DNA of 30,099 bases. Source: Planctomycetota bacterium (lineage in GTDB: Bacteria > Planctomycetota > GCA-002687715 > DRQF01). A program made the position numbers and the translations under genes. The stretch lies in assembly GCA_027001995.1 (NCBI GenBank), contig JALTLO010000158.1, forward strand, positions 1 to 30,099. Direction: 5' to 3'. The notes beneath the pieces were generated by a model. The model had not been told where the DNA came from. It did no database searches and saw only the letters and a program-made list of their open reading frames with translations. Positions 24,904 through 29,253 of this stretch are shown piece by piece (within the stretch, counting starts at the first letter, position 1; each line of letters opens with the position of its first letter).

Positions 24904-25215
24904 TTAGATCACTAAGAGTGTGATGGCGGCACCCAAGGCGATCACCGCGAAAATCAGCAAGTAGCGCCATGTGAAGGTGGATTCGTCCTTGGCGATTTCG
25001 CCTTTCTTCGCCATGGACTTGGAACTGACAGCTGCACTGGCTTGGCCGAGCTTTTTCATGTCTGACCGAGAAAGCGAGCGAAATGCTGAAGGAGCTTTCA
25101 CTGCCCTTGCAGCAGTAGTGGGGGCTGTTTCTTTCGCATTCGTTGTGGGCGTGCTCGTCATTCCAGGGACGAACATCAATAAGAAACCAAGGGCAAAAAT
25201 GTGTGTCTTGAGCAT
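24904..25215 (-). CDS. small exported protein with hydrophobic C-terminus (PA2779-like architecture)
   Basis: 103 aa; AAGGA SD; N-terminal signal-like segment, Ala/Thr/Lys-rich middle with LSRSDM, C-terminal YLLIFAVIALGAAITLLVI. Confidence 0.6.
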   Translation of the reverse strand: MLKTHIFALGFLLMFVPGMTSTPTTNAKETAPTTAARAVKAPSAFRSLSRSDMKKLGQASAAVSSKSMAKKGEIAKDESTFTWRYLLIFAVIALGAAITLLVI

Positions 25216-25230
25216 GATTTTCCTTCTCTG

Positions 25231-25761
25231 TCATTCACCCATGAGGTGATTGGGAATTGCGAGCAACGTGAGGCGCTCGCTGTTTTGCCACCAAGGCATG
25301 AGCTGGCTGAGGGTTAAGACCTTCAGCGTTGAATCTGGGCGATAGACCACGAGGTATTCGCCGTCCTCATCATATCCCACCACAAGGACCCAAAAGGCGC
25401 CATGGGGGGCAGCGTCCAAGAGAAGCAAAAGTGGTCGGCCTGCATCTAAGTTGTCGATGACTCCTGTTGCTTCTTGGCGAAGACTACCGGAAAAAGAGAA
25501 AACGGTGAAGCCTCTGTCTTCAAGAATTGTGAGGAGCTCATCACCGCTCAAACTTCTCTTTTGAATCGTTTCAATTGGGGTCTCTAAACCATAGTAGGAC
25601 TCCAATAGTTCCACTTCCGTTCTTTCTTTGTTCTTTGCCTCTTGATTCTCGTGCACTTCGATGAGGCACACTTGTGGTTGATCTGTTAGCTCTCTGAATG
25701 GGCTGGAACTACATGCGTTGACCAGGGCGAGCATGCCCAAGAGTGGCAGAAGTCGTGACAT
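25231..25761 (-). CDS. putative lipoprotein with degenerate C39-like peptidase fold
   Basis: MSRLLPLLGMLALVNAC lipoprotein-like signal; YYG, RGF...GSL, LDAGRPLLLLL, VLVVGYD and W..S.R.TL follow the C39/PA2778 pattern, but catalytic Cys and His are not seen. Confidence 0.6.
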   Translation of the reverse strand: MSRLLPLLGMLALVNACSSSPFRELTDQPQVCLIEVHENQEAKNKERTEVELLESYYGLETPIETIQKRSLSGDELLTILEDRGFTVFSFSGSLRQEATGVIDNLDAGRPLLLLLDAAPHGAFWVLVVGYDEDGEYLVVYRPDSTLKVLTLSQLMPWWQNSERLTLLAIPNHLMGE

Positions 25762-25800: not shown

Positions 25801-25832
25801 AAAAGGTGAAGCCCGAGGCAATGCCTCGGGCT
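25801..25832 (-). terminator. GC-rich hairpin with weak U-tract
   Basis: AGCCCGAGGC-att-GCCTCGGGCT (perfect palindrome, 25810-25832) followed on the minus strand by TCACCTTTT. Confidence 0.6.
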
Positions 25833-26097
25833 CCTGTACAGAGTGAAATGCCGCACGGCATCAGCTCCGTCGAGCGGATGCTCAGAGGTGCGAACCTCTG
25901 TTACAATCACTACTCATATTGACACCCCCTTTCTGACAGGGCACAAACCCCAGCCGTCGCGCTGTGACACACGCCGCCGAGAACTCATCTTCCTTGGCGA
26001 CCCAAGGAAACACCAGTCAACCGTGATTCACGGTGTCGCTGGGTTGAGTGACGGCACCTGCCCTGCGGTACCTTGTCTCTCTCATCAGCAGACAGGC
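25801..26097 (-). ncRNA. candidate structured RNA / leader with SD-led 11-codon ORF (family not recognised)
   Basis: At least seven stems in ~300 nt, an AAAGGGGGTG SD before ATG 25917, and a terminal hairpin; see findings. Confidence 0.45.
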
Positions 26098-26514
26098 CTA
26101 TCATGCAGGTTCCTTCAGATCTGCCAAGAAAAATCTGGTGAATCTAGGATGAAAATTTAACCGACGATACGCAGCGCGTGTCCGGCGGCTTCATTCTTGG
26201 ATTGTTATTCGGAATTGAGAAAGCGTTGAGGCTTGTTTGAGGCTAGCCCGACTCATTCACGAGATCGTGGTCGTTGTGTGAGAAAACGTCTCGCAAAGAA
26301 AGCTCAGAATAACGATGCTTAGGACTTCTTTTCAAAACACGACACAGCCAGGAGTGGCAGCGTGTTCGTAATCACAACCAGGATTGCGACTTCACGTGGG
26401 TAGTCTGTGAAATCTTCTGTTAGTCAATGCGACCATGTGGTCGTGAGGGGCGATTGATGCAGAGTACGGGCGCTATGTCGCCCCTGGGTGCTGCGAGGTC
26501 GTGAATTATTCGGG

Positions 26515-27765
26515 TTAGAGAGTCTGAATCAAATTTGGCAAGAGGAACCAAGAGCCAGCAACCAAAAGGCCAGCCAAGGCAATGCCGCTGATCAAGAGGG
26601 TGCCGATTTCAGTCAAAAGCAGTGCAGCAATCCTTCCCTTGGCGATGCCAATTTGTTTGAGAGTATCTGTTTCTCTTTGCCTCATGCGGGCAGTCAGGAC
26701 ACACACTAAGCCAATCAAAAAGGATGTTGAAATCGCCAAGAGAACACTCACGAGGTCAAGGAAGGCTTTCACCTGAAAGACTTTTGCCATCAGCTCATCA
26801 ACGACGGCGATCGGTTTGACCATTTGATACAGTTTGCCTGACTTGATCCGGGCTGCGGAAATGACACCAGCCTTTGTGTCATGGGGGAAGAAAAGGATCG
26901 ATGACAACGGCAAGAGATTGGAGTCGCCGTGATAGTGAAAACCGGAAGCGTTTTCCTTCGTGACTTCGTTGTACTCGATCATCGCTCCGCTTACGGTGAT
27001 GTTGTCGCCCTTTTTCGCCAGCAAGAGATCTTCGGAAATCTCCTGGGGAGGTTTGTGACCATGGGAGAGCCCTTCCAGAATCCACGCGGTTCCAGTTGCG
27101 ACGAAGGCAGCTTGGTCATCCGGGGAATTGGATGGCAGTAATGTTCCCACAACGTGCATCTTGAGGGCCGCAGGTTTCGAGATGTCGTAGAGTTCCTTTT
27201 GGTCTGAAAACAAGAAGTCTCCAGGTTTCAAGTCTAAGCCTGCGGCCATGTCCGCCCCTAAGACGACTTCACCTAAACGAAACGGGAAGCGCCCTTGGTC
27301 GCAAGTGAGCTTTCTTTTTTCGAAGTATTCTGGGGATGTGGCGCAGATGGGGTGTCCTTGGGCCTGAAAGCGCAAATTCATGGGGATGGCCACTCCTTTG
27401 TTCCAGCCCGAAATGCGTTCGAAGAGGGAGAAGGGGACCGTGTCGAAATCTGCCGAACGGAAATAGAGGGAAGCCAAAGTGAGGTCGATTTGGTTGCCCT
27501 TCGATCCCAGAATGAGGGGAGTTGTCCGGGCGCGAGCTTTCAGGTCGCTATCGTAGTGGTCGACCAGGATGGTTGTCAGAGTCGGGATGGCGATGCTGAT
27601 GGCAATGCAAAGGACGACGACAGAGGAACGAAAGGGTGTGTGGGAAATCTGCCGCCAGACCACTGACATGAGACCGAGGTTCTTGCATAACCAAAAGCCA
27701 AGCCCGAAGGAAAGAACCCCCAAGGCCGCAACGATCAGAGACATGGGGATTGCTCCAAAGATCAA
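26515..27765 (-). CDS. ABC transporter permease, MacB/FtsX-type
   Basis: N-terminal TM, periplasmic domain (TPLILGSKGNQIDLTLASLYF, GRFP..GEVVLG), C-terminal FtsX-like RQRETDTLKQIG plus TMs; HGH and FHYHG motifs. Start uncertain (27765 or later). Confidence 0.8.
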   Translation of the reverse strand: MIFGAIPMSLIVAALGVLSFGLGFWLCKNLGLMSVVWRQISHTPFRSSVVVLCIAISIAIPTLTTILVDHYDSDLKARARTTPLILGSKGNQIDLTLASLYFRSADFDTVPFSLFERISGWNKGVAIPMNLRFQAQGHPICATSPEYFEKRKLTCDQGRFPFRLGEVVLGADMAAGLDLKPGDFLFSDQKELYDISKPAALKMHVVGTLLPSNSPDDQAAFVATGTAWILEGLSHGHKPPQEISEDLLLAKKGDNITVSGAMIEYNEVTKENASGFHYHGDSNLLPLSSILFFPHDTKAGVISAARIKSGKLYQMVKPIAVVDELMAKVFQVKAFLDLVSVLLAISTSFLIGLVCVLTARMRQRETDTLKQIGIAKGRIAALLLTEIGTLLISGIALAGLLVAGSWFLLPNLIQTL

Positions 27766-29027
27766 CGATTTCCCTCGCTTGTTTGGCTGCCCACACGGAA
27801 TTGTTCAAGGACTTGTGATGAACTGATTCGCCAATCTCCGTTGGCCCATTTAACGGTCATTTCGGCCAGATGTTCATTGGTTCGCATATGTGTGTGACCC
27901 CAATGATAGACTCGACCCAAGACACGCCAGCGAGTTTCGACAGTGAAACTGTCCCCGTTTTCTCCTAATGGTTCTTTGATCTCGACTTGCACCGGTGTCA
28001 CTTTTTGGATTCTACTGACTGCACCGCCTTGGTCCTGCATGATCAGACTGCCGTAGATTTGATCATAGATCTCTGCCAGGAGTTGACCACTTACACTACG
28101 ACTTAGGGCATCGTAGATTTCTTCTTCTTCAGTGTAGTCGAATGCTCGATAAATGTTGGCATGGAGAATATTGAATACATCGATGGATTCTTTTTGAGAT
28201 AGAGGCGGTGGGGTGTTCTCGGCAATAGCGGTCTTCCTGTGTAAAAAGGAGGAGGCGCCCATAGCTGCGATCAAGAGCGTTGCTGCGATGGGTTTGACAG
28301 GGATTGTCGATTTTCGCAAGAATAGGATGAGCACGACAATGACCCAAGCGGCTATCGGCAGAAGCCAGAGATAGGATGATCCGACTTTTTTGTTTCTATC
28401 GATCTTGGGCGCCGCCAAGAATTGTGGTGCCAGGCCTTTGTCACTTCCGTGCCAGATGTATTCGGGCTCTTCTTCACGGAAGGGAATGATCTCCGTCTTT
28501 GTACCAGCGGTCCATTCAGCGTTGATCAGAATGGTTTCATCCACAAATTCGGCCAAGGCCAGATTCTGTGGGTACATGCCCCAGTGTAGAGCAACGCTCC
28601 TTGGGGAGGTCTTGAGGCTGTAGGAGAATGTGACACGAAACTTGATGACGGCCCGCATTCCCATTTGCGGGAAGAACTCGGCGTCTGATTCTTCATAAGG
28701 CAAGATTTGGCAGTCTTTTTGGCTTGGACTCACAGCAATGCCATCAATCTTGACGGCCACTTCCTTTTGGAATTTTGCCAGCAGAGCTTCGCGCAGAGGA
28801 GCCACCTCGTTTTTTTCCACACTCTCTTCAAACAGGCGAGTTTGGCCAATCACTTCGTCACAGAAAACCAGATTAACGATGGCTTGTATTTCGACCTTGG
28901 ACTCCTCGATTTTTACTCGCAGATCGACGTCTGGTCCATCTTGAGGGTGCCTTGCGTTTGTGACACCAGGATCCCAGGAGCTTTCTAAGGCCCCTAAGAT
29001 GAGGATGATGAGGTGAAACGTGCGCAT
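27762..29027 (-). CDS. exported/membrane hypothetical protein with C-terminal HWGHxHxRxN motif
   Basis: GGAG SD before ATG 29027; signal-like N-terminus; two central TMs; NIYRAFD..EEEIYDAL..SV.G and VYHWGHTHMRTN; stop adjoins the permease ORF. Confidence 0.7.
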   Translation of the reverse strand: MRTFHLIILILGALESSWDPGVTNARHPQDGPDVDLRVKIEESKVEIQAIVNLVFCDEVIGQTRLFEESVEKNEVAPLREALLAKFQKEVAVKIDGIAVSPSQKDCQILPYEESDAEFFPQMGMRAVIKFRVTFSYSLKTSPRSVALHWGMYPQNLALAEFVDETILINAEWTAGTKTEIIPFREEEPEYIWHGSDKGLAPQFLAAPKIDRNKKVGSSYLWLLPIAAWVIVVLILFLRKSTIPVKPIAATLLIAAMGASSFLHRKTAIAENTPPPLSQKESIDVFNILHANIYRAFDYTEEEEIYDALSRSVSGQLLAEIYDQIYGSLIMQDQGGAVSRIQKVTPVQVEIKEPLGENGDSFTVETRWRVLGRVYHWGHTHMRTNEHLAEMTVKWANGDWRISSSQVLEQFRVGSQTSEGNR

Positions 29028-29253
29028 GAGAATCTCCGTGTCTTTCCAATGAAAGCTAACTTGGGAGCCACTCAGCAACAAGTCAGGTTGATCTTGTTGA
29101 AAATGCCGTCGAACTTAGCTTGTTGTTTGGCAACTCGGGTGAACCCCAAGATTGCCGATTCATGATATATTTATTGTGCGGAAGATACATGCAACATAAA
29201 CGTAGAGCTCATGAAGCGCTTTAGACTAATTCAAATTCTTTGGAAACATACCA

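Follow-up and report, generated by a model that had tools for sequence, protein, structure and literature searches.

A Conserved Structured RNA of Planctomycetota with an Extended Shine-Dalgarno Sequence and a Short Reading Frame

Introduction

A planctomycete contig carries on its minus strand an RNA of about 300 nt, structured, with an extended Shine-Dalgarno sequence (SD) and a tiny open reading frame (ORF) amid conserved folds, which raises the question of what such an RNA does. The stretch lies at 25801..26097 of the window, by which the whole 30,099-nt DNA analysed is meant. A first-pass annotation, made from the letters alone, had proposed either a riboswitch or attenuator for the downstream gene pair or a stand-alone, ribosome-engaging RNA. 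That interpretation is partly supported: there is support for the stand-alone option and none for the cis-acting switch.

Similar designs are known from the rre genes, for which 30S binding has been shown, together with weak translation and a decay that needs the start codon. They are reported only from Alphaproteobacteria (PMC5711450). rreB of the Bradyrhizobiaceae is 165 nt long and encodes 14 amino acids, and rreR of the Rhodobacterales encodes 18. The rreB RNA co-sediments with 30S subunits, and mutation of its start codon to a stop codon extends the half-life from 10 to 37 min (PMC5711450). It is far scarcer than ribosomes, and twenty-fold overproduction left growth unchanged. Synthetic RreB and RreR peptides are unstructured, an ATG start is found in the Azospirillum rre, and the authors interpret the genes as small-protein genes (PMC5711450). 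Image figures aside, neither the main text nor one supplement of that paper mentions planctomycetes or a pseudoknot, and the parts of PMC10117765 and PMC13285730 that were available add nothing further on the relation to known systems. No planctomycete RNA of this kind is described in the literature covered, subscription papers and the motif lists in supplements of ncRNA surveys lying outside that coverage. The rre RNAs, described in 2016 and still poorly understood, had been taken to be confined to Alphaproteobacteria.

The Conserved Fold

The 297-nt stretch has a minimum free energy of -133.7 kcal/mol (z = -4.34), a value that none of 200 shuffles reached, so that its folding is beyond chance. 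When the sequence was read again, the coordinates given at first for the outer stem (26065-26059 with 25943-25937), the hairpins (26034-26020 and 26009-25990), the SD region (25934-25918), the ORF (25917-25882) and the GACACC word (26037-26032) were all correct.

The RNA begins with a variable 5' region (26010..26093), which holds the 5' strand of P1 (26066-26059) and lineage-specific hairpins and differs in length and sequence among homologs. The 3' strand of P1 (25936..25943) terminates 4 nt ahead of the SD, and within the order this outer helix shows a compensatory change from CA/UG to AC/GU. P3 (25990..26009) is an 8-bp hairpin with a GNCG tetraloop at 26001-25998. The P4/P5 arm (25949..25981) comprises P4 (25981-25976 with 25954-25949), a GACG bulge (25958-25955) and, from the comparative alignment, P5 (25974-25971 with 25962-25959) with its apical loop at 25970-25963. 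Downstream of the start codon, a 3' domain (25835..25905) encloses the stop codon by P6a, P6 and P7 together. P6a (25905-25896 with 25843-25835) was seen in duplex predictions and not counted separately for covariation; P6 (25893-25888 with 25856-25851) and the P7 hairpin (25881-25858, GACG loop at 25871-25868) covary in homologs. All these elements lie on the minus strand.

The RNA is real and conserved. In an alignment of 30 sequences, the 23 consensus pairs are formed in 96.7% of cells, compared with 78.9% after shuffling and at most 56.5% after sliding, and 15 of them change on both sides. The P4/P5 arm is paired in 100% of cells, with 4 of 10 pairs changing on both sides; in P3 all 8 pairs do so, and 97.9% of cells are paired. 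Since the 5' consensus structure was derived from this same alignment and the P4 sequence was in the search pattern, P3 gives the cleanest covariation evidence. Among 35 matches outside the model-building set, all 9 pairs of P6 and all 8 of P7 change on both sides, and 83.9% of their cells are paired (55.7% shuffled, at most 45.6% slid); these sequences were new to the model, yet the alignment itself was fitted to it. The GACG hairpin and the terminator are also kept in homologs.

The helices proposed at first fared unevenly. The outer stem, the hairpin at 26009-25990 and the terminator are retained in homologs; CAGAGGU/ACCUCUG is not, and the conservation of CCCAGC/GCUGGG is at most genus-level. 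The competing pairings GCCGUC/GACGGC and GACACC with the SD, which had been offered as the basis of a switch, are not kept in homologs and are mostly specific to the genome of the window. No conserved internal anti-SD was found across 65 members (mean z 0.09 and -0.46). The comparative fold leaves the SD unpaired. The lowest-energy fold of the window buries it and is more stable, by about 12 kcal/mol, than the fold forced into the comparative helices, the pseudoknot not being counted. In the largest family sampled (L191, L194, L197, L199, L201, L203), a word in the 3' domain looks like the end of the 16S rRNA and would be able to pair with either of the SDs. Such anti-SD-like words 3' of P6 are limited to some large-genome members and are not conserved phylum-wide.

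Distribution

The search for homologs and covariation that had been proposed for this locus revealed homologs across Planctomycetota, with helices that covary strongly. BLAST matched 17 of 61 relatives at E 0.1, and six matches were read as true copies; a second search of relatives, with 10 of 23 genomes matched, gave three further copies. A pattern scan of the genome collection returned 77 loci, 38 with the whole design on reading and 39 that were dropped, and 36 of the 38 belong to genomes labelled Planctomycetota; three coincide with loci from the genus and family of the window. Model R1 matched 34 of 151 genomes of the phylum, with 26 of 27 newly read loci proving to be members. Model R2, which spans the SD to the 3' helix, matched 72 of the 151, nearly always with one copy each, a count that errs both ways: four of its weakest hits were non-members on reading, and 25 candidates were scored per genome. 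Copies are present in closed genomes of the phylum. The RNA thus occurs about once per genome across Planctomycetota and has no Rfam match. The scan of the window gave no family at its cut-off anywhere, the best E-values below the cut-off near the locus being just 5.1 and 9.3, and 20 further loci were likewise without a match.

On reading, one BLAST hit (in G003, L010) and the model hits L139 and L204-L207 were rejected as non-members. Of these, L207 (G280:C2:82814-84180) shows a duplicated promoter-leader of about 190 nt ahead of two tandem prepilin-type ORFs. Several bins titled Chitinophaga, Kuenenia or Proteobacteria (L041, L061, L063, L106, L090) hold near-identical Pirellulales-type or other planctomycete copies and are likely mislabelled or mixed.

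Outside the phylum, R2 matched 12 of 39 genomes at E 0.05, several of them with a promoter, the same SD, a short ORF and a terminator. A Nitrospinales bin (L153:1501-1585, minus strand) contains an rre-like gene with a promoter, a GUCG-loop hairpin like P3, an extended SD, a terminator and a 14-codon ORF whose stop lies inside a long hairpin; it looks intermediate between the planctomycete and alphaproteobacterial forms. The forms in Acidobacteriota bins (L158, L164/L250, L251, L249) are minimal: the ORF has 6 codons, the terminator is conserved and one genome holds two copies. L249 resembles the planctomycete form; L158 and L164 gave no Rfam match. Candidates with a promoter, an extended SD and an ORF of 11-14 codons were seen in Armatimonadota bins (L160, L272, L287). 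A strict SD-start pattern was found in 6 of 61 genomes in the phylum of the Acidobacteriota bin (three with short ORFs), in 1 of 81 in the class of the Cellvibrionales bin, that one a long ORF, and in none of 101 in the phylum of the Opitutaceae bin. In Armatimonadota, a looser pattern mostly returned the 16S gene read backwards. Viral contigs gave seven pattern matches, two with short ORFs, and no sign of a phage-borne family.

The Shine-Dalgarno Sequence and the Pseudoknot

The extended SD (SD1, 25923..25934, minus strand) precedes an 11-codon ORF (25882..25917, minus strand), which starts with AUG 7 nt after the SD core and stops at UGA. It forms 12 contiguous pairs with the 16S 3' end including G-U and 7 without, scored on the 16S end of a relative as the assembly of the window holds no 16S gene. 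The first-pass annotation had called it the strongest SD-like sequence noticed in the window. Its pairing energy of -14.9 kcal/mol is exceeded by only 0.15% of 2,712 crude gene starts in the same genome, and within the family it is the weakest among 37 representatives. The family median is 16 contiguous pairs with G-U, a length reached by 33 of 53 members with G-U and by 9 of 53 with Watson-Crick pairs only. The five carrier genomes inspected have a canonical 16S 3' end (5/5), and the family consensus is the exact 16-nt complement of this end, finishing in the G of GUG. The extended SD is present in each of the 53 homologs studied closely, a frequency that is inflated, as is that of P4, by the presence of both in the search pattern or models; only the first BLAST hits are free of SD bias, and all six true copies among them carry it.

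A pseudoknot likely encloses the SD and the start codon, because the apical loop of P5 upstream of them is complementary to early codons of the ORF and the two change together between clades. In the window, the predicted 5' strand (25964..25968, in the P5 loop, supported by family-level covariation) would pair with a 3' strand at 25906..25910, that is, at +8 to +12 from the start codon and inside the stretch that an initiating ribosome covers. Cognate loop-ORF pairs scored 13.05 against 11.41 for permuted ones (8/10,000; n=20 of 30 seeds, near-duplicates dropped), 13.09 against 11.60 in a second set (28/10,000; n=22) and 12.87 against 11.14 in a third (0/10,000; n=31). The signal is a modest shift of the mean with a moving register, and closely related sequences do not count as independent. 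In just 4/20 and 5/22 cases does the cognate loop outscore all unrelated ORFs, and the 5-bp pairing of the window is not distinctive alone (score 11, against 11.6 for unrelated ORFs). Across the family, the predicted 3' strand lies at about +4 to +25 from the start. Positions +4 to +25 fall within the footprint of an initiating ribosome or at its edge.

Relation to the rre RNAs and CC2171

Among 201 alphaproteobacterial genomes, 37 contained the strict SD-start pattern, with 39 matches compared with 6 for a reversed control, and 27 of 30 loci fetched have a short ORF and a terminator. These loci fit the rre genes (PMC5711450). The Rfam family CC2171 (RF01867) scored above its cut-off at 5 of 20 of them and below it at 15. 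Expression of CC2171 was confirmed by Northern blot and no function is given in the part of the preprint available (bioRxiv 10.1101/2022.01.24.477521). CC2171 and the rre genes appear to be one class, and many loci (L216-L245) share a GGAGCARCCU word, read as E-Q-P codons, in mid-ORF. For 26 alphaproteobacterial loci, pairing of the bases that follow the start with the strand just ahead of the terminator scored 14.27 against 10.49 (0/10,000), and this lock lies mostly at +6/+8 to +13, where the pseudoknot strand of the window is found.

The planctomycete RNA very probably belongs to this rre-like class. Both groups have their own promoter and terminator, predicted from sequence in the planctomycete RNA, a short ORF without peptide similarity between clades and a genomic context that is not conserved. 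In both, the complementarity to the 16S 3' end reaches as far as the G of a GUG start, and a long-range helix, predicted in the planctomycete case, locks the stretch just after the start. They differ in the leader, which is about 10 nt in the rre-like loci and a folded 5' domain of 100-170 nt in planctomycetes, and in the lock itself, a nested helix with the 3' strand in the former and a pairing with an upstream loop, the predicted pseudoknot, in the latter. The planctomycete RNA, unlike the rre RNAs, also has GNCG/GACG loops and a stop enclosed by P6/P7.

Four rre traits can be compared with the window. A short ORF with a conserved frame follows directly on the extended SD, and the gene is predicted from sequence to stand alone, with promoter, terminator and variable context. 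The complementarity to the 16S 3' end amounts to 7 Watson-Crick pairs, or 12 with G-U, where rre genes have at least 16 nt, and the window starts with AUG in place of the GUG in whose G the complementarity of rre ends. The CC2171 model begins with the same extended SD and GUG as the planctomycete family; it has no 5' domain and is curated as a non-coding sRNA. Its best match below the cut-off coincides with the locus of this family in three genomes (G145, G158 and G066; 40.9, 26.5 and 22.8 bits), all short of the 75-bit cut-off, and it has no match at the loci of G000, the genome of the window, and G013. With three of five planctomycete loci found at this sub-threshold level, homology and convergence of the two groups are both possible. 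The planctomycete RNA thus likely functions like an rre RNA, yet lacks two rre hallmarks in the window as well as a CC2171 score above the cut-off, and adds a 5' domain, a pseudoknot and GACG loops. The RNA is less novel than the first-pass annotation supposed: Rfam holds no match, but the SD-start-short-ORF design was already described in 2016 for Alphaproteobacteria (PMC5711450).

This uncatalogued family of 200-300 nt, with its strong covariation, makes a good target for cryo-EM with 30S subunits. A phylum-wide version with an unconserved peptide moves the weight from the peptide to the encounter of RNA and ribosome, and the position of the lock near +8 to +13 in both groups, with a nested helix in Alphaproteobacteria and a predicted pseudoknot in Planctomycetota, provides a specific and testable mechanism.

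Proposed Mechanism

The planctomycete RNA likely binds free 30S subunits, by analogy with rreB. The SD and start codon would sit in the loop of the pseudoknot predicted from covariation, with the 3' strand over about +4 to +25. A 30S subunit could then dock on the SD but would have to melt the knot to accommodate the start region, because SD and start lie in the loop and the strand covers these positions, and initiation would be slowed. A ribosome that goes on to translate would unfold the RNA and expose it to degradation. The tight 30S binding, weak translation and start-codon-dependent decay assumed here are carried over from the rreB experiments. In a further step, the working part may be the RNA and not the peptide, and its fold and level may report the number of free, initiation-competent 30S subunits; the three GNCG/GACG loops would be likely docking sites of a putative protein or RNA that reads this state. 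Docking, knot-slowed initiation and decay on translation would together make the RNA a gauge of initiation-ready subunits. We give this mechanism slightly better than even chances, and that the RNA is a translation-gated switch seems evenly balanced. What is shown directly is the conservation of the RNA, its helices, the position of frame and stop, the independence from neighbours and the complementarity to the 16S 3' end. Several points weigh against the mechanism: the SD of the window is the weakest of the representatives and is followed by AUG, its lowest-energy fold buries that SD, the pseudoknot signal is modest, and growth was unaffected by the twenty-fold excess of rreB.

A comparable arrangement exists in the rpsO-type entrapment leaders, where a pseudoknot over the initiation region lets the 30S subunit dock and blocks its accommodation. 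Unlike the planctomycete RNA, which has no regulated gene, such leaders lie in cis to protein genes, and a repressor protein stabilises them.

The Short Reading Frame

In all 53 non-redundant members, the start codon lies 6-10 nt downstream of the SD core. The first in-frame stop is found 7-16 nt before the GACG loop in 50 of 53, the other three having variant loops, and this spacing recurs in 31 of 33 cases of the third set. In the other two frames a stop at that position is rare (0 of 106 and 1 of 62 cases). The stops comprise all three codons, ORF lengths range from 9 to 33 codons, and the starts are 32 GUG, 14 AUG (the window among them) and 7 UUG. Peptides are alike within clades and unrelated between them; a D-C-T-x-G-L-R-like core is shared by many Phycisphaerae and the order of the window, and across the phylum as a whole no amino acid is enriched. 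Reading of the UGA as selenocysteine was considered and rejected, given that homologs use all three stops and the frame beyond the stop is not kept.

These features bear on a reading in which the locus is a small mRNA with the peptide as its product, and structure and over-long SD merely hold expression low. The similarity of peptides within clades and the selection on frame and stop would agree with it, as does the small-protein interpretation of the rreB authors (PMC5711450). Against it, nothing is common to the peptides across the phylum over their 9-33 codons, codons are conserved where they take part in the pseudoknot and in P6, and the synthetic RreB and RreR peptides are unstructured (PMC5711450). 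Moreover, the third base of the Cys codon is invariant (30/30) while the first two vary, so that a silent position is better kept than coding ones, which points to a constraint at the RNA level. Selection acts on initiation and termination and probably not on the peptide, as judged from the kept frame and stop, the unrelated peptides across clades and that silent base. A peptide product is therefore unlikely, at roughly one chance in five.

The Second Purine Tract

A second purine tract (25895..25899, minus strand), a possible SD2, lies 7 nt before the last sense codon of the window and is also the 5' strand of a helix. Tracts at -15 to -10 from the stop pair with the anti-SD at -5 kcal/mol or lower in 33 of 37 representatives (the 53 members minus 16 close kin), compared with 14% of 2,749 ordinary gene ends. 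They stand 5-7 nt before the last codon, the same spacing as from SD1 to the start. That the tract acts as an SD for a ribosome at the stop codon is held as a possibility only, because it is also the 5' strand of P6/P6a.

On this possibility a more elaborate picture can be drawn, as doubtful as the peptide product. The RNA would clasp the ribosome, with the pseudoknot closing a ring between the mRNA exit and entry sides of the 30S subunit, SD1 holding an initiating ribosome and SD2 a terminating one. It would be the elaborate planctomycete version of a class, so far overlooked, of RNAs that sense or park ribosomes in several phyla, namely Planctomycetota, Alphaproteobacteria and single examples in Nitrospinota, Acidobacteriota and Armatimonadota bins.

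A slightly less probable proposal takes the RNA for a storage or quality-control device and not for a sensor: covering the 16S 3' end, it would park 30S or 70S particles, for instance in slow growth. The consensus complementarity extending 16 nt into the 16S rRNA end and the frequency of the second tract favour such parking, and a homolog assembles even from a metatranscriptome assembly of 6 million letters. The proposal fits poorly with rreB, whose RNA is far scarcer than ribosomes and can be overproduced without a growth effect (PMC5711450). In addition, the second tract is usually paired in P6/P6a, where transition-biased covariation could keep purines, and the conserved stop suggests that ribosomes are released.

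Genomic Context and Expression

A sigma-70 promoter is predicted at 26100..26127 (minus strand; -35 at 26127-26122, -10 at 26105-26100) with 9 of 12 consensus matches, and the predicted transcription start is near 26093. The promoter scan gave three sites against 0.9 in shuffles, and both boxes are kept in order-level homologs. The terminator claimed at first exists as a 12-bp stem (25801..25834, minus strand; 25834-25823 with 25819-25808) about 48 nt before the ATG at 25761; its U tail is weak, and the consensus terminator scan did not call it. Homologs end in a GC-rich stem with a T tail.

A homolog, L105, offers a hint of expression. Parts of its stretch occur in 18 RNA runs from 11 studies. 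In four metatranscriptomes from four studies, contigs span 1422-1658, inside the predicted ends at about 1416 and 1718, with 5' ends at 1422, 1426, 1426/1430 and 1443. These contigs, which come without strand, level or DNA control, hint weakly at transcription of the homolog, and the missing cover on its flanks carries no weight as evidence.

The neighbours of the RNA vary on both sides. Downstream, 36 of 49 loci have an ORF named by Pfam, of 20 kinds: 24 on the same strand (13 kinds) and 12 convergent (7 kinds), valS being convergent in four genomes of the order of the window. The RNA is predicted to be a stand-alone gene with its own promoter and terminator in a context that is not conserved, and it is likely transcribed on its own, as judged from the sequence. 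The stand-alone, ribosome-engaging option of the first-pass annotation is supported by this variable and often convergent context, along with the conservation, the promoters and terminators of homologs and the likeness to rre RNAs.

Control in cis of the lipoprotein pair downstream, by a riboswitch or attenuator, is highly improbable: the neighbours differ between loci, and with convergent genes downstream in 12 of 36 cases the RNA is not always followed by related genes on the same strand. The pair does follow the RNA in the family of the window (G000, G002, G005, G008), and in that family only. The weak U tail and the lowest-energy fold of the window, which sequesters the SD, would suit such control. 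Against them stand the 20 kinds of downstream genes, the 65 members without a conserved internal anti-SD and, as a weak point, homolog contigs that stop before the terminator.

Of the pair itself, 25231-25761 (minus strand) is predicted to encode a lipoprotein and faintly matches the PA2778 C39 peptidase family (E 0.032, well short of the cut-off), and 24904-25215 (minus strand) is a small secreted-looking protein with a hydrophobic C-terminal end; neither gave a Pfam hit, and both are conserved in the family. Upstream, 26515-29081 (minus strand) encodes two membrane proteins of 416 and 439 aa, also conserved in the family and without a Pfam or NCBIfam hit; by eye, the first looks like an ABC permease. 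In two lineages the neighbours include release-factor genes, bVLRF1 upstream (L006, L115, L028) and RF-1/PCRF downstream (L122, L124, L126). Other flanking genes include valS, a class I glutamyl-type synthetase, a Der-like GTPase and TruB. These flanks may have arisen by chance.

Other RNA Classes

The rre-like reading was also compared with better-known RNAs. Regulation by CsrA through GGA loops was considered and dropped, many of the loops lacking the A; a type I toxin mRNA was likewise set aside, the peptides being short, polar and unconserved. tmRNA is likewise a structured RNA with an internal short ORF; a pseudoknot lies ahead of the frame or around it, the stop sits inside a helix, and these features recur in the planctomycete RNA. 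The tRNA-like domain and CCA end of tmRNA (RF00023) are absent here, and the planctomycete RNA uses its own SD and start. The early impression that the locus resembles no tRNA, tmRNA, RNase P or SRP RNA was borne out by ARAGORN, which found nothing in the window, and by Rfam, where RNase P (RF00010), SRP (RF00169/RF01854) and 6S (RF00013) gave no match at the locus.

A diverged housekeeping RNA (tmRNA, RNase P, SRP or 6S), suggested by the single copy, the length of about 300 nt and an assembly, 92% complete, without an SRP hit or a clear 6S hit, is largely refuted, as the tmRNA (contig C47) and RNase P RNA of this genome lie on other contigs, SRP RNA is found elsewhere in 5 of 5 carriers tested (4 above the cut-off), no Rfam family matches and a multi-branched fold with SD and ORF is unlike 6S. 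Beside the RNase P gene and on the opposite strand, a weak 6S match (G000:C25:5539-5722, L026; 17.4 bits, E 0.585) may represent a diverged 6S RNA.
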